A DNA stretch of 64,000 nt from Verrucomicrobiota bacterium (GTDB taxonomy: Bacteria; Verrucomicrobiota; Verrucomicrobiia; Methylacidiphilales; UBA1321). The notes beneath the pieces are model-generated. The model was given only the letters and a program-made list of their open reading frames with translations. It made no database searches and was not told where the DNA came from. The stretch lies in assembly GCA_013286145.1 (NCBI GenBank), contig JABDGH010000004.1:5874-69873 (forward strand), read 5' to 3'. The translations under genes and the position numbers were made by a program. This document shows, one piece after another, positions 5,251 through 63,768 of the stretch. The number at the start of each line of letters is the position of its first letter. The first letter of the stretch is position 1.

Positions 5251-6594
5251 CTATATCGATGTCGATAAAAGCCGATAGTGACGCCTGAAACAGAACGCGC
5301 AAAGAAGACAGGCGAACAGAATCCATACCGGGAGGAAAACAAAACCTCGTGCGACTGCGTCCTGCGTACTGCCACCATCCCGGACGGCTCTGAGTACGAG
5401 GGCAAAAACGAGACTGATAAATCCATAGCCGAGGTTGAAGGCAAGACCCTTGAAGGAAAGCACGGTGGCCCGATGGCTCGAATCGACGAGCGCGTTCAGG
5501 TAGTACGATACGATGTACCCGAGCGCCATCATGGCTGCGCCCAACGGCAGGATAAAAACGACGCCCCAATAAGTCCATTGGCAGGCGACTCCGGTGAGAC
5601 CCGCCAGGACGGTCAGCCCAATGAGGCCATAATTTCGCGCCACGGAATTGACTGCGACCATGCGCCGGGCGACAGGCGAGATGACCATTCCCAGGCCTCC
5701 CATGACCGCGCCGATCAAGCCGAAGGTTGCTTCCGGAAGTTCGATCACGCGAAAATAGGAACTGGAAAAGGTGAGGAAAAGTCGAACGACGCTGTCAATC
5801 AACACCCCGGCCGTGATGACGAAGAGCGCAATCGGTGTTTTCATAATCCATGTTCCCGCGTTGACCACCAGATGCCACGCCGTAATTTCGAAGCCGCCTG
5901 AATTCTTATTCTTGGGCGCGACTTTGGTGGCCCGCTCCACTGGTTCGCGCAAGCCGAGGGCAATCCAGAGCGTGAAGAAAGCGGTGATGAGATTGAGATA
6001 GACCGGGAAGCGAAGAGTTAAATCCTGGGTGACATGAAAATTCGCTCCAAAAAATGAGAAGACGCGCCCCATGAATTTGGGATCGTAAACCGCTCCGCCA
6101 ACGAGCATGGCGATGACCATGCCCACGCCCTGCCAGCGCATGACCTGATCCAATACTTTGGGCCATTCCTTGGACCTGCCGCGCTCGGCCAGCGAGTCGA
6201 AGACCAGCGCTTCATCCGCTCCGCTCGCCATGCCCTCCGCCATGCCGCTTAAGATGCGATTCGCCAGGCAGCAGAGCAAAAGAACGATGCCTCCATGACT
6301 CGGAGCTACGCTGAGCAGTACCATTTCGAGTACCATGAAGAAGGCCGCCGCCACGACCAACGGCTTGCGACCAATCCGATCCGCCAGCACACCCGCGGGC
6401 AAATCGGTGAAGACGATGGCGAGCGCCCAGGCAAAATTCAGCAGCGTGTATTCGGTCGCGCTGAGGCCCAGGTCAAGAAACAGAACGGCGAGAACCGGAT
6501 AGTAAAAGCGCGAATTGAAGAGAACGCGGAACAGGACGAACCGCCGCCAATTGCGGTCGGCATCGCTCATGTTCTTGCGAAGTTCCTTTGTCAT
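5251..6594 (-). CDS. MFS transporter
   Basis: MFS motif A GVLADRIGRK; ASGADEALVFDSL; about 12 hydrophobic segments. Confidence 0.9.
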   Translation of the reverse strand: MTKELRKNMSDADRNWRRFVLFRVLFNSRFYYPVLAVLFLDLGLSATEYTLLNFAWALAIVFTDLPAGVLADRIGRKPLVVAAAFFMVLEMVLLSVAPSHGGIVLLLCCLANRILSGMAEGMASGADEALVFDSLAERGRSKEWPKVLDQVMRWQGVGMVIAMLVGGAVYDPKFMGRVFSFFGANFHVTQDLTLRFPVYLNLITAFFTLWIALGLREPVERATKVAPKNKNSGGFEITAWHLVVNAGTWIMKTPIALFVITAGVLIDSVVRLFLTFSSSYFRVIELPEATFGLIGAVMGGLGMVISPVARRMVAVNSVARNYGLIGLTVLAGLTGVACQWTYWGVVFILPLGAAMMALGYIVSYYLNALVDSSHRATVLSFKGLAFNLGYGFISLVFALVLRAVRDGGSTQDAVARGFVFLPVWILFACLLCAFCFRRHYRLLSTSI

Positions 6595-55025: not shown

Positions 55026-55925
55026 ATGTCCTTGTCACGAGTTCATGTTCGCGTACCCGCCAGCACTTCCAATCTCGGTCCCGGTTTCGATTGCTTGGGC
55101 GTGGCTCTGAATCTTTACAACACGACCACGGTCACACACATGGAGGGCGCGATCCCGCCGGAAGGGATGATCGGGGAAACGGCCAAGGCTTTTTTCCAGT
55201 ATGCCGCCAACGGGAAAATCAAACCGTTCGGATTTGAAGCACGCATTGATGGCGATATTCCGATTTCGCGGGGAATGGGCAGCAGTGTCACAGTGCGTCT
55301 CGGAATCTTGATGGGGCTGGCGGAACTCGTTAAAGAGTCGTTCCCCGTCACGCGCGAACAGATCCTGAATTTGCTGATCGAATTGGAAGGTCATCCCGAC
55401 AACGCGGTGCCTTCTTTCCTCGGCGGGTTTGCGGTTTGTTCCCATGCCACGGACAAGCCGGAGGACGGCTTTGCCTACACACGAGTCACGGTGAAGTCGG
55501 AACTTTCGTTTGTGACCCTGGTGCCCGACTTGCGCTTGAAGACCGAGACAGCCCGTGGACTTTTGCCGAAGGAAGTCCCGTTTCATCATGCGGTGGAAAA
55601 TGTTCAGCGCGCCGCCAGGATCGCTGCGGCTTTTTGCACCCACGATTACGCATCGTTGCGCGGACTTTTTGTCGATCATCTGCACCAGCCGTTTCGTCAG
55701 GTGCTCATTCCCGGTTTTGCCGACATCCTGACGGCGGCGTGCGAAGCGGGCGCGTTGGGAAGTTTCCTCAGCGGCGCAGGTTCTTCCTTAATGGCACTGA
55801 CTTTGGATCAGACGGAGACTATTTCCTCTGCGATGCTGGAAGCGGCTCAAAAGCATGCTTTGCCCGCCCATGTCCTCGTCTTGAAGGCTGACAATGAAGG
55901 TGCGCAAATTTTGGATAAAGTCTAA
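55026..55925 (+). CDS. thrB: Homoserine kinase
   Basis: VPASTSNLGPGFD, IPISRGMGSS, EGHPDN, LHQP, LSGAGSS. Confidence 0.96.
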   Translation: MSLSRVHVRVPASTSNLGPGFDCLGVALNLYNTTTVTHMEGAIPPEGMIGETAKAFFQYAANGKIKPFGFEARIDGDIPISRGMGSSVTVRLGILMGLAELVKESFPVTREQILNLLIELEGHPDNAVPSFLGGFAVCSHATDKPEDGFAYTRVTVKSELSFVTLVPDLRLKTETARGLLPKEVPFHHAVENVQRAARIAAAFCTHDYASLRGLFVDHLHQPFRQVLIPGFADILTAACEAGALGSFLSGAGSSLMALTLDQTETISSAMLEAAQKHALPAHVLVLKADNEGAQILDKV

Positions 55926-57337
55926 AGCCTGATCGTCAGGCGACGGCGGCGAAAGGTGGGCTGATCGAGATTTTCACCGCGATACATGGTTTCATGCGTC
56001 TTCTCGAAGCGACCGCGTGTGGGCCCTTCAAATTGCATTTCCTCCTGCTTGGCGATGAAACGTTGACCGGGCTGGGTTGTCACTGAGGTAGATCGCGGAA
56101 TTTCCACTTCAGGAACAGGCAATGGATCTGTCTCAGCCATGGCGTGATTCTCAACCACGGCGGGCGCGGGTTTTGATTTACGGGGAGCGGGGAGTGAACG
56201 CGTCGGCTTGCTTTTATCCGTCATCGGAGGCTCAAGCCTTGCTTCCACTTCGGGCAATGCGGTCGTCTTGGCGATGGGTTTCACCGACTTGGGAGAATGT
56301 TGTTTATCAGGCACTTCTTCGACCAAGGGCTCCAGGGCGGGAGTGGTCATGGCCAGCAGAACGGTCATGCGCACCTTGTCATGGCTTTCTTCATCGAGAC
56401 TCGCACTGGTGGCGATTGGAATGTTGACGGGGATATGATCCTTTAACGCACCGACCATTTCCTGAACATCGGAAAGGCCGAGATTACGCGTCCCGTTGAC
56501 CGCGACAATGGCGTGATCGACGTGTTTCCAGATCGATTCGTCGCTTAGCATGGGACAGGCGAGTAACTGCTGAATCAAGTCTTCCGTGCTATCGTGGATG
56601 TCCCCCTCCACATGCGCCACCCAGCAATTTTCCAGCACTTCTGAACCGATATAACGGCCATAGAGACTGCGCACATCCGCAAAAGAAAGTTGAATGAGAC
56701 CGCGCTTGCAGACAATCTGCGCAAGCGCTTGCGCGGTCTGCGCCAGCAATTGATGCATGAGATGAAAACCAAGGCGTACATTTTTTGATGCAGCGGGATT
56801 TTCGACGATCCGATCCTGGGAAAGAACCAGGACGCTATCGGCTTCCTGGCGCAAGGATGCAGTGGCTTGAATCGATTTTTCGCGCCGGGCCCAGCCTTCA
56901 AACGCAAAAGGCTGCACCCCTGCCACGATGACTTTCGCGCCGGTCTTGCGACCCAATTGAATTAAATGTTCGGCCAACGCCACACCGGTGGAACCCGCAA
57001 GACCGAGGATAAGAATAAGAAAATCACAACCCTCCACGACGTTCACTAGCTGACTTTCTTCCAGTGCGACAATTTCGCGCGCCAAGTCCATGTCCCCCGC
57101 GCAACCCAATCCATGCACAAGATCGCGACCGAGCAAATGACGATTGGGCACCACCGAGCTCTCAATTGTTTGCTGATCCGAATCGAAAACCCAGATGTCC
57201 TGCGAAGGCCGGCCATGCATAACCATCTGGTCACATGCGGCGACCCCTGTCTGCCCCAACCCGATGATGCGCACGCGATCAGGAAAAAGCTGGTCAGCTT
57301 TTTCCGAGAAAGGCCCGTCTTTTTTGAATTCGATCAC
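55922..57337 (-). CDS. ftsZ: Cell division protein FtsZ, highly divergent
   Basis: Follows ftsA; GLG, PFAFEG..R, FADVR and C-terminal RGRF...GENLDQPTF.R retained; tubulin signature degenerate (GLAGSTG). Confidence 0.85.
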   Translation of the reverse strand: MIEFKKDGPFSEKADQLFPDRVRIIGLGQTGVAACDQMVMHGRPSQDIWVFDSDQQTIESSVVPNRHLLGRDLVHGLGCAGDMDLAREIVALEESQLVNVVEGCDFLILILGLAGSTGVALAEHLIQLGRKTGAKVIVAGVQPFAFEGWARREKSIQATASLRQEADSVLVLSQDRIVENPAASKNVRLGFHLMHQLLAQTAQALAQIVCKRGLIQLSFADVRSLYGRYIGSEVLENCWVAHVEGDIHDSTEDLIQQLLACPMLSDESIWKHVDHAIVAVNGTRNLGLSDVQEMVGALKDHIPVNIPIATSASLDEESHDKVRMTVLLAMTTPALEPLVEEVPDKQHSPKSVKPIAKTTALPEVEARLEPPMTDKSKPTRSLPAPRKSKPAPAVVENHAMAETDPLPVPEVEIPRSTSVTTQPGQRFIAKQEEMQFEGPTRGRFEKTHETMYRGENLDQPTFRRRRLTIRL

Positions 57338-57352
57338 TTTTTCATCCTCCCA

Positions 57353-58588
57353 TTAGATAAGTCTCATGCTGGCAAGCGCGCGTCGCAGCGACTGGCCGAC
57401 GCGTGCAAAACCTCGTGTAGCCGGAACTTCAAGCTCCGCCTGACGCGCATAATGCAACAGCCCCAGGAGTGTGCTGAGATCCGGCCTGCGTCCATAATTT
57501 TGATCGCCATCGAAAGGAAATTGATGAGCCAGCTCGACCGGACAAGGGAAAATCTGCGATGCAAGTTCAAGCAAGCCGTTAACCTGCGAGGCACCGCCTG
57601 TAACATAGACCGTTCCGGCAAAATCGGGCCAGAAGGAGGCGTTTTGCAAATCCTCCAGGATGATCTCAAATATTTCCGCCTGCCGCGCCTGCATGATCGT
57701 GTTGAGCGATTCGCGGTAGATTTGCCGCTCTTCAAAATTATAGGCGCCGGGTAACGTGATGCGGTCGTCCTTCTCGGCAGGGTTGAGAATCACTGAACCT
57801 TCCGTTTTTTTCAACTGCTCGGCCTTGGCATAGGGAATTTTAAGACCGGAAACGATGTCGTTGGTCAGATGATCTCCACCCACTCCCAGAATCCCCGTAT
57901 GAACGACAGCACCCTTTTGATAAGCGATGTAATCCGAAACGCCGCCACCAAGATTGATAACGATGGCCCCCAACTGCTTTTGGTTGCGGCTTAATACCGC
58001 TTGGGCAGTGGCATACGAACTCAATGCGTAATTTTTGACATCGATACTGAGTTCCTTCACGCAACGAATGGTGGTTTGGAGTCGCGTGGCCAGACCATAG
58101 ACCTGATGGAAATGGGCGGTGAGTTGCTTCGAGGCAAGTCCGACTGGATTATCCGTGGTCGATCCATCATCAAGCACATAATGCTGGAGGAGATGGTGCA
58201 CAATCGCATGATCCGCAGGCAATGGCTGGGCTGTCGCCATGTCGTGAAGTTCCTGCAAATGTTCCTGCGTAATCTCGTCGCCATCATGATTGATTACCGT
58301 GGTGACGCGTGTATTCGAAGAACGGATATGCGCCCCTGTAATGGTGAGATAAACCTCGGCAACAACCACGTCGGTTTTGCGTTCCGCTTCCGCCAAGGCG
58401 TCACGAATGCAACCCTGGGCCACTTCAAAATCGACGATCTCGCATTTGCGAACCTGCCCCGAGCTCCCCTCTCCAATCCCAAGCAGGGCGAGAGTTCCGT
58501 CGGGGCGAATTTCCCCCACGGCAGCAGCAACCTTGGTGCTTCCTACTTCAAGTGCGACAACGATATTGCGTGTTTTTCCCCAGAACAT
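57353..58588 (-). CDS. ftsA: Cell division protein FtsA
   Basis: ALEVGSTKV, INLGGG, GGDHLTNDI, AEQLK, VTGGASQ; dcw position. Confidence 0.95.
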   Translation of the reverse strand: MFWGKTRNIVVALEVGSTKVAAAVGEIRPDGTLALLGIGEGSSGQVRKCEIVDFEVAQGCIRDALAEAERKTDVVVAEVYLTITGAHIRSSNTRVTTVINHDGDEITQEHLQELHDMATAQPLPADHAIVHHLLQHYVLDDGSTTDNPVGLASKQLTAHFHQVYGLATRLQTTIRCVKELSIDVKNYALSSYATAQAVLSRNQKQLGAIVINLGGGVSDYIAYQKGAVVHTGILGVGGDHLTNDIVSGLKIPYAKAEQLKKTEGSVILNPAEKDDRITLPGAYNFEERQIYRESLNTIMQARQAEIFEIILEDLQNASFWPDFAGTVYVTGGASQVNGLLELASQIFPCPVELAHQFPFDGDQNYGRRPDLSTLLGLLHYARQAELEVPATRGFARVGQSLRRALASMRLI

Positions 58589-58615: not shown

Positions 58616-59479
58616 TTATTCGTAGAAGTTAACTGGCACGTATTGGTCAGGCGTAAGATCGACGGTGCGGATCGTCCGCAACGGGTTTTCCGTGTACTCG
58701 ACAATCTGTCGAAGACGTCTCATCTGCTCGTCGATATTATCGAGCCGAAACGTGATCGCCATGTCGTGTGTAGTCATCATCGTGATTGAAAGTGGCTGAC
58801 TGAGATCAATGGAACGAATATCGATGGAGGTGTGGAGTGTCGGTGTGTGATCCATGGCCTTGAGAATTTCCAGCGCACATGCCAGGCCCCGTTGTTCAAG
58901 GCGCGTACCGGGTTCCAACTCGGGATTGGGAAGGCCGACAGTCACCACGGGCAGGAGGGGAAGCTCTTCGTTTTCGCGGGGCTTCAGCACGATGCAATCG
59001 CGATCCAGGTAAAACATTTCACGTGTACCGTGATCGATGTTCATACCAAAAATCTTCGCAACGGGGACACGTTCATGAATATGAATAATGATTTCGTCCG
59101 GAAAATGCCGTTCAATTTTCGCACTCGAAACATAGGGGAGTTTCTCCAGGTCATGCGTGATCTGGGGAAGATTCAACGTCCAGAGGTTCTCTCCCAACTC
59201 GAGACCAGCGGCCTGGCGAATCATCCGCTGAGAAAAGTGATTTGGGGGGTCTATATTAATGTTATTCAGACTATAGAGCGGATTGCTGTAAAGAACCCGA
59301 TCCAGCACAAAATTGATTCCAAAATGGAGGCCAACACCCACCGCCACGATCATCAACAGCACAATGCCGCCCCAAGTCGCCGCCTGTGTAAGCTGTTTGC
59401 GCGAATGACGCTTGCGTGTCGTTGTGTGCAGAATGTTGATCTGTTTTTGACGGGTGCGATTGCGAAGGCGGCGGTTCAT
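58616..59479 (-). CDS. ftsQ: Cell division protein FtsQ/DivIB
   Basis: Basic N-terminus, one TM, POTRA LEKLPYVSSAKIERHFP...ER.P; located between ddl and ftsA. Confidence 0.9.
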   Translation of the reverse strand: MNRRLRNRTRQKQINILHTTTRKRHSRKQLTQAATWGGIVLLMIVAVGVGLHFGINFVLDRVLYSNPLYSLNNINIDPPNHFSQRMIRQAAGLELGENLWTLNLPQITHDLEKLPYVSSAKIERHFPDEIIIHIHERVPVAKIFGMNIDHGTREMFYLDRDCIVLKPRENEELPLLPVVTVGLPNPELEPGTRLEQRGLACALEILKAMDHTPTLHTSIDIRSIDLSQPLSITMMTTHDMAITFRLDNIDEQMRRLRQIVEYTENPLRTIRTVDLTPDQYVPVNFYE

Positions 59480-60390
59480 GTGTTTCTTTCTTCCTGACGG
59501 CAGGCCCAGGATAATTCAACGATGCGACGACAAAGTTCCGGAAAGCTGATGCCCACGGCGGACGCGGCTTTTGGAAGCAGACTGGTCGCGGTCATTCCCG
59601 GGATGGTATTGACTTCAAGACAGTAGATATTTCGATCCTTTTCGAGCAGGAAATCGACACGGGAATAAACTGCATTCCCAATCGCATGATGCGCAGCCAG
59701 TGCCTGCTTCTGAATCAATTGCGTGATTTCTTCAGGCAGTATCGCCGGGCAAAAATATTCGGTTCGGCCCTTGGTATATTTGTTCGTGTAATCGTAGAAA
59801 CCATCGAGCGGATGAATTTCAATGATGGGAAGCGCCTCTCCACCCAGGACACCCACTGTCAATTCGCGTCCCTGGATATATCGTTCAACCAGCGCAGCGG
59901 AATCAAACTTGAGTGCATCGGCGAGCGCAGATGCCAAATTTTCCCTGGTCAAAACGGGGTGAGACCCGACGCTCGAACCTTGCTCATTCGGCTTGATGAA
60001 AAGCGGCAGCGGCAAGGTGATCTCCTCCAACCGCCGAACCAATTGTCCTTCGGGCGTGGGAACACCATGCTGCCGAAATTTTTCCTTGGTTCTTTCCTTG
60101 TCGAAGGCGATGCGACTTACTTCCGCATTGGCACCTGTGTAAGGAATGCCACGCGTCGTCAGAATTTCCTGAACCTGACCGTCTTCGCCAAAGGTTCCGT
60201 GCAAGGCCAGAAAAGCGAGATCGGTTCCCGCTGGCACGACAAAATTGGCATCTTCCACCACGACTTCATTAACCTCGTACCCGGCTTCGCGCAAAGCCGT
60301 CGCAGCAGCAGCACCGGAGCGTAATGAGACCTCACGCTCGGCGGAAGTTCCGCCTTTCAGCACAGCGATGCGGTGGGGTTTATCGCTCAT
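59476..60390 (-). CDS. ddl: D-alanine--D-alanine ligase
   Basis: GGTSAEREVSL, LHGTFGEDG, GSSVG, YDY..KY, LEVNTIPGMT. Confidence 0.96.
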   Translation of the reverse strand: MSDKPHRIAVLKGGTSAEREVSLRSGAAAATALREAGYEVNEVVVEDANFVVPAGTDLAFLALHGTFGEDGQVQEILTTRGIPYTGANAEVSRIAFDKERTKEKFRQHGVPTPEGQLVRRLEEITLPLPLFIKPNEQGSSVGSHPVLTRENLASALADALKFDSAALVERYIQGRELTVGVLGGEALPIIEIHPLDGFYDYTNKYTKGRTEYFCPAILPEEITQLIQKQALAAHHAIGNAVYSRVDFLLEKDRNIYCLEVNTIPGMTATSLLPKAASAVGISFPELCRRIVELSWACRQEERNT

Positions 60391-60394
60391 TTTC

Positions 60395-62689
60395 TTAATG
60401 TTCCTCTCCCAGCACGATGACTTCGGTGTGCAAATCAATCTGGCGTGTTTCGCGGGCACGGCTCTGGATCAGTGCAATGAGCTGCAACACATCATCAGCA
60501 GTGGCGCCTCCGTCGTTGACAATAAAATTTCCGTGAACTTCCGAAACACGCGCCGAACCCACGGAAAGATTCTTAAGCCCCATTTCTTCGATCAACTGAC
60601 CTGCTGGAATTGGCCCGGGATTTTTGAAAATGCAACCAGCACTCGGCGCAGCAGGTTGGGAAGTCCAGCGCTTGCCTGAATAGGCTTTCAATTTCTCGTT
60701 GATCTCCTCCCTGGAACTAGGCGTACCTTTCAACCGCGCGGAAACCGCGATGTGCGTTTGGAAATGAGGAACGTTGCGGTAATGAATCTCCATGTCCGCT
60801 TTTTTCACGTCGTGAACATGGCCGAGTAAATCGATACTACGGACGCTTTCGACCACTTCCATGGTCCAGCCCTGCATGGCTCCCGCGTTCATCCGCAACG
60901 CGCCGCCCATGTTGCCGGGAATGCCCTCCATAAATTCAAAGCCACCCAGGTCGTGCTTGCGAGCATCTGCCACAATCTGCTTGAGTCGTGCGCCAGCCCC
61001 AACGGTGACATATTCGTTTTCCACTTCGATCCGATTGAAGTAAGGCCGGCCCAGGTGAACGCAAAGTCCGAGAATGCCTCCCTCACGAATAAGCAGATTG
61101 CTTCCGCGTCCGATGAATGTGACTGGGATTCCCCGGTCGTGCGCAAAGCGAAGACCCACTTTGAGATCTTCCTCATCTGTCGGCTCGAACCAAAGTTGGG
61201 CCGGACCACCGATACGCATCGTCGTGTGTTTATGCAATGGCTCATCGCGTTTAAGAACGCTTTCGGATTTCAAAAATCCTTTCAATTCCGTGTGCCACGT
61301 CAGGCCCTGGGCCAGGTACTGGGCGACACGATGAATATCTCCCGCGCCCAGTGTGATCACCAAATCACCCGGTTCAAGAACGGCATTCACCGCAGAGCGC
61401 AAACGACCCAGCGTCGGCTCAAAATGAACTTTAAGATGTTGATTGGCGCGCACCGCCTCGACCACGCTCTCACCAGTTACACCCTCCAGTGGCGTTTCAC
61501 TCGCTGCATAAATTTCAGTGATAAAAACTTCCGTTGCGTCGTGAAAGGCACCGGCGAACTCGTTGAGGAACGCCTTGGTTCGCGAATAACGATGCGGTTG
61601 AAAGAGAGCCAGCACGCGCTTCCAACCACTATTGCGCGCGGCGGCCAGGGTAGCCTTAACTTCGGTGGGATGATGCGCGTAATCATCCACCACCATGTAA
61701 TCGACCGAGTGATACTTCACTTCAAAACGCCGGGCGGCACCGCGAAATTCCGCCAGGGCGCTGACGATCTGGTTCCACGCAATGCCAAGTTCAGTTGCAA
61801 GCGCAATCACCCCAAGCGCATTACTCACATTTTGAGCGCCGGGAATTTCCAAGGCCACCTCACCCAACAGCTGGCCCCGCTTCAAAACCGTGAATCTTGA
61901 CGAGAAATTTTGCAACCGCACATCGAGCGCACGATAGGTCGCCAGTTCTGACATGCCATAACTCACCGCCTGTTCGCAATGCGAACAAAGCAACATGCTG
62001 TTTTTGTCATCGGCACAATAAATGATTGGGCCGCGCGTCCGTTCGCACAACAAGGCGAAAACCATGACGATCTCCTCGATATTATGATAAAAATCGAGAT
62101 GCTCCTCCTCTATATTCAAAATCAGGCTTGCCTGAGGAGCGAAAAGAGCCAGCGTGCCGTCACTCTCATCCGCCTCCACCACAAAGGGCGCGCCATCCGT
62201 CCATGCCGCGTTGACCCCAAGCAACGGCACCTGCGCTCCGATGTAATGGGAAGGATTCATGTCGGCCTGACGCAAGACGTATGTGAGCATCGAGGAAGTC
62301 GTCGTCTTGCCGTGACTGCCCGCCACAACATATGTGCTCTTGGTATCGGCCAGGATCACGAGGCATTCCGCGCGCCGAACGCAAAGAATATTTTGCTCGA
62401 CGGCAGCTTTGCGCTCTGGATTTTCCGCAGCGATGGCCGAGGAAAAAACCACCAATGTCACGCCATCCACGTTCGAGGCCTGATGACGATCAAAGTAACG
62501 CACACCCTCCGGGATGTAGTTGGAAGCTTGTTCCACCGGTATCAAATCAGAACCGGAAAGCTGATGCCCCTGCGCAAGGAGCAATCGGGCCAGGCCGCTC
62601 ATCCCGCTACCGCACACGCCAATAAGATGTATCCTTTGCGGACCATCCTTCAGCAGGCGCTCGATACGTTGTTTCAATTCCGGTTGCAT
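60395..62689 (-). CDS. murC: Fused MurC-MurB (UDP-MurNAc-L-Ala ligase + UDP-GlcNAc-enolpyruvate reductase)
   Basis: MurC: IGVCGSGMSG, GSHGKTTT, EADESDG, DDYAHHPTE, FQPHRYSRT; MurB: HTTMRIGG, GRGSNLL, GIPG.MGGALRMNAG, SAGCIFKNP, HGNFIVN; single ORF. Confidence 0.95.
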   Translation of the reverse strand: MQPELKQRIERLLKDGPQRIHLIGVCGSGMSGLARLLLAQGHQLSGSDLIPVEQASNYIPEGVRYFDRHQASNVDGVTLVVFSSAIAAENPERKAAVEQNILCVRRAECLVILADTKSTYVVAGSHGKTTTSSMLTYVLRQADMNPSHYIGAQVPLLGVNAAWTDGAPFVVEADESDGTLALFAPQASLILNIEEEHLDFYHNIEEIVMVFALLCERTRGPIIYCADDKNSMLLCSHCEQAVSYGMSELATYRALDVRLQNFSSRFTVLKRGQLLGEVALEIPGAQNVSNALGVIALATELGIAWNQIVSALAEFRGAARRFEVKYHSVDYMVVDDYAHHPTEVKATLAAARNSGWKRVLALFQPHRYSRTKAFLNEFAGAFHDATEVFITEIYAASETPLEGVTGESVVEAVRANQHLKVHFEPTLGRLRSAVNAVLEPGDLVITLGAGDIHRVAQYLAQGLTWHTELKGFLKSESVLKRDEPLHKHTTMRIGGPAQLWFEPTDEEDLKVGLRFAHDRGIPVTFIGRGSNLLIREGGILGLCVHLGRPYFNRIEVENEYVTVGAGARLKQIVADARKHDLGGFEFMEGIPGNMGGALRMNAGAMQGWTMEVVESVRSIDLLGHVHDVKKADMEIHYRNVPHFQTHIAVSARLKGTPSSREEINEKLKAYSGKRWTSQPAAPSAGCIFKNPGPIPAGQLIEEMGLKNLSVGSARVSEVHGNFIVNDGGATADDVLQLIALIQSRARETRQIDLHTEVIVLGEEH

Positions 62690-63768
62690 GAAGCTTCAAT
62701 CTCCTCGGCCACGCGTTTGGCCGCATCTTCCCCGGCCAATCCCTGCGCCGCCTTGACCATCCCTTGACGCAGTTTGGCATCGGTCAATAACTCGACGACC
62801 ATTTGGTGCAAAATTTCAGGGGTTGCCTTGTTTTCAACCAGGATTCGCGCCGCGCCTGCCCGCTCGAAAATGCGCGCATTGTAAGACTGGTGATCGTCCG
62901 CCGCCGCCGGATAAGGAACCAGGATCGCAGGCAATCCGTAATGACTTAATTCCGTAAGTGAAGCGGCTCCTGAACGGCTGATAACCACATCAGCGAGGCT
63001 ATAGAAATGTTCCATTTCCGTCGAGAACGCCTGCACCACGGCGATGAGCCGCTGGCGACGATAATTGATCTCCGCGATATTGGCATCGGCCTGGCCGGTG
63101 AGGTGAATAAACTGCACATCGTCGCGCTGATTCTGCCACATCGGCAGTGTCTTCAACACGAGTTCATTGATGCCATGAGCGCCCTGACTTCCGCCCATGA
63201 TCAGAACGATCGGCAATGCTGGATTCAAACCAAATCTTTCCGCCGCAACCGCACGATCAATCCGTTCCAGGCCGCGGCGCACCGGAGTACCGGTTACCAC
63301 GCAATGTGCCCGGCGAAGATAATTTGCGCATCCATCGAAACCAAGCAGTGTCTTGTTTACCCACGGCGCGATCATGCGGGTTACCCGGCCCGGGATGGCA
63401 TTCGACTCGTGGATCAGCGTGGGTAAATGAAGTCTTCGTCCCAGCATCAACGGTATGGCACTGGTAAATCCGCCCATTCCGACCACGGCAGTCGGTTGAA
63501 AATCGCGATAGACCTGGCCGCACTCGCGCCAACTGCTCAGGAGATTCAGCCCGAAAGAGAAAATACGCGGCGAGAGAAATCCCGGCCAGCCGATTCCCGG
63601 CAAGGCATGGGATTGCTGTTCGTTGGCACCCTTGAGCGCAATGGCATCGATTTGTTTCGGTGAAACGAGAAGCAGCGTGTCGTGTCCGCGTTGGCGCAAC
63701 TCTTCCGCAACGGCCAATCCCGGAAAGAGATGGCCTCCTGTTCCTCCGCAAGCGATGGCGATTTTCAT
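62674..63768 (-). CDS. murG: Undecaprenyl-PP-MurNAc-pentapeptide GlcNAc transferase
   Basis: GGTGGHLFPG, HESNAIPG, GGSQGA, SRSGA, DHQSYNA. Confidence 0.97.
   Translation of the reverse strand: MKIAIACGGTGGHLFPGLAVAEELRQRGHDTLLLVSPKQIDAIALKGANEQQSHALPGIGWPGFLSPRIFSFGLNLLSSWRECGQVYRDFQPTAVVGMGGFTSAIPLMLGRRLHLPTLIHESNAIPGRVTRMIAPWVNKTLLGFDGCANYLRRAHCVVTGTPVRRGLERIDRAVAAERFGLNPALPIVLIMGGSQGAHGINELVLKTLPMWQNQRDDVQFIHLTGQADANIAEINYRRQRLIAVVQAFSTEMEHFYSLADVVISRSGAASLTELSHYGLPAILVPYPAAADDHQSYNARIFERAGAARILVENKATPEILHQMVVELLTDAKLRQGMVKAAQGLAGEDAAKRVAEEIEASCNRN

Follow-up and report, generated by a model that had tools for sequence, protein, structure and literature searches.

We have found that the ftsZ gene that ends the dcw (division and cell wall) cluster in a Verrucomicrobiota bacterium of the order Methylacidiphilales encodes the ordinary FtsZ ortholog of its lineage, with a rebuilt active site. 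The gene lies on contig JABDGH010000004.1, within positions 5,874 to 69,873; this 64,000-nucleotide stretch, analysed at its full length, is the window, and coordinates are given within it. The active-site changes are real, clade-wide and under selection, and they are not simple erosion. From the sequence, we hold with moderate confidence that the protein binds guanosine triphosphate (GTP), hydrolyses it poorly and acts as an FtsZ scaffold within a divisome that is ordinary in other respects.

Active-site changes and their conservation

The protein is predicted to have the fold of FtsZ, stands after ftsQ and ftsA in the dcw cluster and carries its C-terminal peptide behind a variable linker. 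The structure prediction that had been proposed as a check gave an intact FtsZ fold, confidently modelled: the AlphaFold2 model of residues 17-335 has a predicted local distance difference test (pLDDT) score of 93.4 and a predicted template modelling (pTM) score of 0.92, and the structures closest to it are FtsZ (Z 35, root-mean-square deviation 3.5 over 306 residues). Profile scores are low. PF00091 is matched at 73 bits (cut-off 33), while the TIGR00065 equivalog (126.1 bits, cut-off 295.2) and PF12327 (20.7 bits, cut-off 27) fall short of their cut-offs. With canonical FtsZ (Escherichia coli; Bacillus subtilis, 2vxy; Staphylococcus aureus, 7ohk) the protein shares the predicted fold, the ftsQ-ftsA-ftsZ context, the core-linker-tail layout, the T5 motif, D212 and the interface hydrophobics; it differs in the sub-cut-off TIGR00065 score, N207Q, D209S, N43D, the relaxed G71 and Q47 positions, the AGSTGVA signature, an ENCW insertion and an Arg at the L378 position. 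It is not a BtubA/B protein, since PF00091 scored 76 bits against 177-199 for Btub in that comparison and the top structure matches listed are FtsZ. FtsZl1 (Pfam Tubulin_2, PF13809) was found neither in five genomes, including the source genome, nor among the Pfam matches of the protein. Modelling of two copies together with GTP and Mg scored 0.00 and was used neither way.

Substitutions were numbered by aligning the 471-amino-acid protein to E. coli K-12 FtsZ, to which it is 22% identical; the adjacent FtsA is 29% identical to its E. coli counterpart. The replacements are G20Q, G21T, N24A, N43D, T44S, A70C, G71A, G105A, G107S, T110V, G111A, N165Q, N186H, N207Q and D209S. Kept are G19, G22, D45, G69, G103, G106, T108, G109, P134, F135, E138, R142, D166, F182 and D212. 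The canonical T4 signature GGGTG[S/T]G is absent (AGSTGVA), as is the canonical T7 motif N-x-D-x-x-D (Q-L-S-F-A-D). The original prediction, made from this sequence, had claimed changes in six motifs (T1, T2, T3, T4, T6 and T7), retention of PFAFEG..R and of the C-terminal peptide, and an intact open reading frame beside ftsA and ftsQ. The alignment bears out each of these; the peptide is LDQPTF, predicted from its letters to be of the FtsA-binding type, and the gene is on the minus strand.

Sequencing error, raised as a concern at the outset, was ruled out, the changed states being common to 14 same-genus sequences from 13 genomes with synonymous codons varying at most of the sites shown. A public contig (~29x depth) has 0 differences from the gene, and may itself be the source of the DNA. 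A pseudogene was likewise rejected on the intact reading frame, the conservation of the replacements in homologs and a ratio of nonsynonymous to synonymous substitution (dN/dS) far below 1.

Conservation was measured on the best 120 of 300 protein matches, query included, whose core identity is 69-94% (500 random pairs). In these homologs the new residues Q29, D52, Q216 and S218 (protein numbering) are invariant (120/120), as are D54, F219, A220 and D221. Mean conservation is highest in the T7/H8 region (0.954), against 0.85 in the two domains and 0.54 in the linker. Pairwise dN/dS was computed by the NG86 method for 14 same-genus genes (91 pairs, of which 73-89 were unsaturated depending on region); the median is 0.127 in the core, 0.071 in T7/H8, 0.075 in the tail, 0.44 in the linker and 0.074 in ftsA, values that are rough because the proportion of synonymous differences (pS) is about 0.6, and that come from pairs which are not independent. 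This comparison among orthologs had also been proposed as a check, and at about 0.13 the core lies far below 1.

The nucleotide pocket was represented by 22 manually chosen positions, some of them based on known structures. The query is canonical at 13 and changed at 9. Conservation of at least 90% was found at 19/22 pocket positions versus 168/286 background positions (Fisher p=0.012; p=0.068 for non-Gly positions), and 6 of the 9 changed positions are fixed at that level. E138, F135, P134, T108, G109, F182 and R142 are retained at 96-100%. F137, L205, F210, R214 and L272, which we take to be longitudinal-interface residues, are kept in 14/14 same-genus sequences. The description of these motifs as eroded is therefore not supported for the genus: many new residues are fixed, T7/H8 is the best conserved region and dN/dS is far below 1. 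The suggested status of an intermediate heading for FtsZ-independent division is likewise unsupported for the genus, as selection is retained and the tested divisome genes are present.

Distribution of the changes and inventory of FtsZ copies

The wider sample comprised 68 sequences from the order, taken from 65 of its 90 genomes with a match, together with 91 from elsewhere in the class and 19 from other classes; it leans to high scorers because it was chosen among the matches listed, and several low-scoring families lie outside it. Two genomes, one with a stop and frameshifts inside the match (G010) and one with fragments (G020), were excluded from the counts. T7 calls from MAFFT and hmmalign agree in 168/179 sequences, and 10 of the 11 disagreements belong to family f9, which contains Methylacidimicrobium.

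The full N-x-D-x-x-D motif occurs in 0/68 sequences of the order, 27/91 of the rest of the class and 6/19 of other classes. A class-wide lack of the motif is ruled out by the 27 sequences of the class that keep it. Of the 68 sequences of the order, 3 have D209, 1 has N207 and 60 have an acidic residue (D/E) at 212. The same half of the motif is missing elsewhere: in the FtsA-tree clade that holds the Akkermansia muciniphila, Phragmitibacter and Ca. Xiphinematobacter proteins, D209 is found in 0/29 and D/E212 in 28/29, and in family f22 all 30 of the 30 sequences examined lack D209 and keep GGGTGSG. Among the best 150 cluster representatives matched by the order profile, D209 occurs in 18. Loss of D209 in Methylacidiphilales and in the Akkermansia branch may represent one event or two on the single-gene FtsA tree, which has long-branch problems. 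A mirror image of this loss was observed in a Horticoccus/Opitutales clade (L081-L110 and others), with D209 in 26/26 and D/E212 in 0/26.

The remodelling of the pocket is specific to Methylacidiphilales, where 12-19 of the 22 positions are canonical, versus 20-22 in the other groups scored. The FtsZ proteins of Verrucomicrobium spinosum (T7 RMGIAD) and A. muciniphila (RVGLDD) likewise lack D209 and have D212 (30/30 in f22) and a long linker, and the V. spinosum cluster has a murC-murB fusion as here; Verrucomicrobiaceae FtsZ, however, keep GGGTGSG (30/30) and a near-canonical pocket (about 21/22 in family f17), whereas T1-T4, T6 and H7 are rebuilt here. In f9 (L045-L054, L080), T7 is left unaligned by the canonical-FtsZ profile in 10 of the 11 sequences examined, while the genus studied here has fixed a new T7; one f9 protein, in Methylacidimicrobium, is labelled hypothetical.

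General divergence of verrucomicrobial FtsZ is already published. In Methylacidiphilum infernorum, of the same order, ftsZ evolution is stated to be accelerated, data not shown (Hou 2008, PMC2474590), and the protein is reported as found only with an alternative query (Rivas-Marin 2016, PMC5147048), being hard to detect by standard search. V. spinosum FtsZ is described as a canonical yet divergent protein in a study that marks 8 of its positions (Yee 2007, PMC1845146), and PMC9871819 places verrucomicrobial FtsZ among the most divergent, the T7 loop going unmentioned in the portions consulted. The literature on Methylacidiphilum, verrucomicrobial and Akkermansia FtsZ yielded no residue-level pattern or biochemistry (supplements were outside its scope, and Pilhofer 2007/2008 may mention substitutions). 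The divergence helps to explain why some of these FtsZ proteins are labelled hypothetical.

FtsA has changed as well. Its phosphate-2 Asp is Asn in 35/64 FtsA sequences of the order, 14/14 of this genus and 1/109 outside, and the Asn state is found in the subclade whose FtsZ pockets are altered the most. The effect of this Asn is uncertain, because Thermotoga maritima FtsA also has Asn at the position. For the equivalent residue in E. coli FtsA, D210A is reported neither to complement nor to form rings (PMC10213515).

The source genome, which is 65.9% complete, has one PF00091 match, the ftsZ of the dcw cluster. Across the order the same search matched 90/104 genomes, including 50/50 of high quality, with a best score of 118 bits. 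The second canonical ftsZ or btubAB that the original prediction proposed to look for was found neither in the 65.9%-complete source genome nor, by PF00091 search, in the 104 genomes of the order. Tubulins of the order would have been seen, because the search picks up BtubA/B, scoring 177-199 bits, in three genomes that belong to another family. Two copies above the cut-off occur only in G014, G016 and G019, and all of these are non-canonical. Families of FtsW/RodA, the transpeptidase, FtsK, FtsB and MreB are present in 5/5 genomes tested; MinC and ZapA gave no profile match in five genomes.

Several side observations concern copy number. Genus g3 (G016, and G019 with two copies also) has one ftsZ that stands alone, its T7 being QLTFAD, and another in the dcw cluster whose T7 is altered further, the two loci in G016 being L044:3509-5290 and L041:2597-4525. 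Four near-complete Verrucomicrobiota genomes (G117, G201, G213 and G310) have no PF00091 match and family f44 has weak matches only; further divergence of FtsZ or its loss is possible there. Tandem double FtsZ domains occur in P0180, P0214 and P0219 (744-840 amino acids) among the cluster representatives.

Proposed function of the rebuilt site and competing explanations

The catalytic site was read against S. aureus FtsZ as described in PMC8936486. There D210, together with D213 and G72, is reported to position the catalytic water, N208 and Q48 to form a K+ site, N44 and D46 to hold Mg-bound waters, R143 to have a finger-like role and the N24 equivalent to hydrogen-bond the nucleotide; Q48A and R143K stabilise polymers with GTPase activity ~6-fold lower, and D46A, N208L, D210N and D213N suppress assembly. 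Of the eight catalytic and cation-site residues, five (E. coli N43, Q47, G71, N207 and D209) are changed or relaxed in the 120 homologs. N207 and D209 are replaced in 120/120, the Q47 position is relaxed (L in 81, Q in 29), the R142 position is R in 115 and K in 5, and D45 and D212 are kept. Relaxed water and cation sites, together with retention of residues needed for assembly, suggest slow hydrolysis with binding and polymerisation retained.

In the BtubA/B proteins compared, T1 reads GQxG and the N43 position is Asp, so these two changes are no argument against GTP binding. This resemblance is probably convergence. The predicted fold and the context of the present protein are those of FtsZ, and its top Foldseek and VIA matches are all FtsZ. 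Where the label of pseudo-GTPase in the original prediction implies a loss of GTP binding, it is overstated, given the BtubA/B-like T1 and T2 and the retention of T108, G109, P134, F135, E138, R142 and F182. Its alternative, a non-treadmilling scaffold with reduced hydrolysis, fits the replacement of N207 and D209 and the relaxation of G71 and Q47. The T7 change is not peculiar to this genome: V. spinosum FtsZ is also without N207 and D209.

We hypothesize that this FtsZ still binds GTP, polymerises head to tail and docks on FtsA at the membrane via its conserved tail, and that its GTP hydrolysis is slow or nearly nil. It would then serve as a slowly turning-over division scaffold and not as a fast treadmilling filament; the filaments would recruit FtsQ/B and FtsWI, and wall synthesis by FtsWI would mainly drive constriction. 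There are precedents. V. spinosum is reported to undergo binary fission with an essential ftsZ (Henriques 2025, PMC12283558), E. coli with GTPase mutations in the chromosomal gene, D212A/G among them, to divide with defects and distorted septa (bioRxiv 077610), and S. aureus to keep normal constriction rates when treadmilling is almost gone (PMC10994846). GTPase-deficient mutants (E. coli D212A/G and G105S; S. aureus Q48A, R143K and T111A) offer a functional model of stabilised, slow or non-treadmilling filaments that support septation, but are single laboratory changes with defects, whereas here many changes are fixed jointly under selection.

Several points weigh against a hydrolysis-poor scaffold. 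Two residues linked to catalysis, D212 and R142, remain in place and Q216 does not vary, which a rewired catalytic site would fit equally well. The S. aureus changes D210N and N208L abolish assembly (PMC8936486), and the natural N207Q/D209S would therefore need compensating changes. With 9/22 pocket positions changed, N24 and G105/G107 among them, the protein may bind nucleotide weakly or no longer at all. The ratio of FtsZ to FtsA rates is 2.15 in the genus and 1.4-1.6 in two full-motif groups; it is 1.6-1.8 in D209-less groups outside the order while full-motif groups span 0.6-1.6, and the FtsZ/FtsA distance ratios do not tie the loss of T7 cleanly to a faster evolution of FtsZ. Finally, a filament that never hydrolyses GTP needs another route of disassembly, and none was found, MinC and ZapA being unmatched in the five genomes.

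The competing explanations differ in what remains of the nucleotide cycle. In a rewired but active GTPase, Q216, D221, R151, the T2 Asp and perhaps the Glu of ENCW would position the attacking water and treadmilling would be near normal. Ras and EF-Tu use Gln or His to position the water, and the Q216 position is Q or H in 44/68 sequences of the order; Q216, D221 and D52 do not vary among the close homologs, D52 holds in 68/68 of the order, ENCW appears together with the order, and selection acts more strongly on T7 than on the remaining core. Related D209-less lineages even show what looks like compensation, with K/R at 207 in 30/30 and an extra Asp at 211 in 22/30, but here 211 is occupied by Ala. 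Free variation in the genus is seen at G71, the residue that holds the pre-catalytic water, and at Q47, which belongs to the K+ site, and the ten f9 sequences whose T7 fails to align indicate that the order tolerates T7 loss. On this evidence we regard rewiring as possible but somewhat unlikely. A true pseudo-GTPase, with no useful nucleotide binding and acting as a nucleotide-independent polymer or as an adaptor between FtsA and the wall synthases, appears distinctly doubtful. It would account for a pocket more altered than the 20-22 canonical positions of other D209-less families, for a G107 position that is never Gly in the 120 homologs, and for the 35 phosphate-2 Asn FtsA sequences that stand beside more altered FtsZ pockets (mean 14.1 vs 17.3 of 22, among kin that are not independent); the near-universal retention of E138, F135, P134, T108, G109, F182 and R142 speaks against it, as do replacements that are mostly small or polar and fixed, with T1 and T2 states seen in BtubA/B.

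We consider it highly improbable that the gene is a decaying relic en route to FtsZ loss, with division already handed over to another system such as MreB or FtsK, as Chlamydia and planctomycetes have done. The lower E. coli identity of FtsZ than of FtsA, the faster FtsZ core (dN/dS 0.127 vs 0.074), the unalignable T7 of the ten f9 sequences and the acceleration described for M. infernorum would fit decay; however, ftsZ is retained in all 50 high-quality genomes of the order with dN/dS far below 1, its predicted fold is intact, its tail conserved, and ftsA and ftsQ stand intact alongside.

A hydrolysis-poor scaffold would matter beyond this genus. It is debated whether division requires GTP hydrolysis and treadmilling of FtsZ, and most work on the question has used sick point mutants; here are natural, selected, sole-copy FtsZ proteins without residues described as conserved across species. 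The question is directly testable, since ftsZ of V. spinosum is reported essential, targeted mutagenesis exists there and A. muciniphila is cultured. The series from full motif, through loss of half of T7, to a rebuilt pocket and an unalignable T7 is graded and lends itself to asking how bacteria of the Planctomycetes-Verrucomicrobia-Chlamydiae (PVC) group could have dropped FtsZ. It is conceivable, though unlikely, that whole Verrucomicrobiota branches divide with a hydrolysis-dead FtsZ, D209 having been lost in Methylacidiphilales and in Akkermansia/Verrucomicrobium/Xiphinematobacter, and D212 separately in Opitutales; in the present Methylacidiphilales subclade both FtsZ and FtsA would have given up nucleotide cycling to form a static FtsAZ scaffold. 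If true, such a scaffold would fill the functional gap that separates treadmilling FtsZ from division without FtsZ in planctomycetes and chlamydiae.

Locus and domain architecture

The cluster order is murG-murCB-ddl-ftsQ-ftsA-ftsZ. The gene ftsZ is read from 57337 to 55922, and the opposite (plus) strand of 55922-57337 is closed to translation. Its start codon is GTG, with GGAGGA 7 nt upstream, and lies 15 nt past the ftsA stop; ftsA adjoins ftsZ in 174/179 loci. ENCW is invariant in 101 close homologs. Coordinates are collected in Table 1.

Table 1. Genes of the cluster and elements of FtsZ, in window coordinates (res, residues of the protein; substitutions in E. coli numbering)
Feature	Coordinates	Strand	Basis or remarks
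ftsZ, 471 amino acids, divergent, last dcw-cluster gene	55922..57337	-	Open reading frame, neighbours, AlphaFold2 model, fold matches
ftsA	57353..58588	-	Above TIGR01174 cut-off; phosphate-2 Asp (E. coli D210) is Asn
ftsQ	58616..59479	-	POTRA and C-terminal domain
ddl	59476..60459	-	Profile match
murC-murB fusion	60395..62689	-	Profile match
murG	62674..63768	-	Profile match
T1 loop GLGQTGVAA, res 26-34	57236..57262	-	G20Q, G21T, N24A; Q in 120/120; GQxG as in BtubA/B
T2 DSD, res 52-54	57176..57184	-	N43D, D45 kept; D at 43 in 68/68 of order, 120/120 close homologs
T3 GLGCAG, res 76-81	57095..57112	-	G71 position N 47, S 45, G 24, A 4 of 120
T4 signature AGSTGVA, res 114-120	56978..56998	-	G105A, G107S/A/C; G106, T108, G109 kept
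T5 PFAFEGWAR, res 143-151	56885..56911	-	P134, F135, F137, E138, R142 kept
T6 LSQD, res 172-175	56813..56824	-	N165 position Q here, H in 100/120
H7 guanine-side F191 and H195	56753..56767	-	F182 kept; N186H, H in 113/120
T7 loop QLSFAD, res 216-221	56675..56692	-	N207Q, D209S, D212 kept; Q, S, F, A, D each 120/120
ENCW, res 236-239, H8-S7 insertion, order-specific	56621..56632	-	46/68 order sequences, 0/110 outside
Pro-rich variable linker, res 331-425	56063..56347	-	Mean conservation 0.54; dN/dS 0.44
C-terminal tail, res 426-471, QEEM, RGRF and LDQPTF	55925..56062	-	dN/dS 0.075; LDxPxF-type in 68/68 of order

Downstream, thrB (homoserine kinase; 55026-55925, plus strand) is convergent with ftsZ, and the stop codons of the two overlap by a few bases. 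Just outside the window lie ftsW, a 350-amino-acid open reading frame and a murD-like open reading frame. The 350-amino-acid frame (L194:1962-3014, minus strand) is situated between the murD-like gene and ftsW, and has an N-terminal hydrophobic segment and, by eye, two LysM-like repeats.

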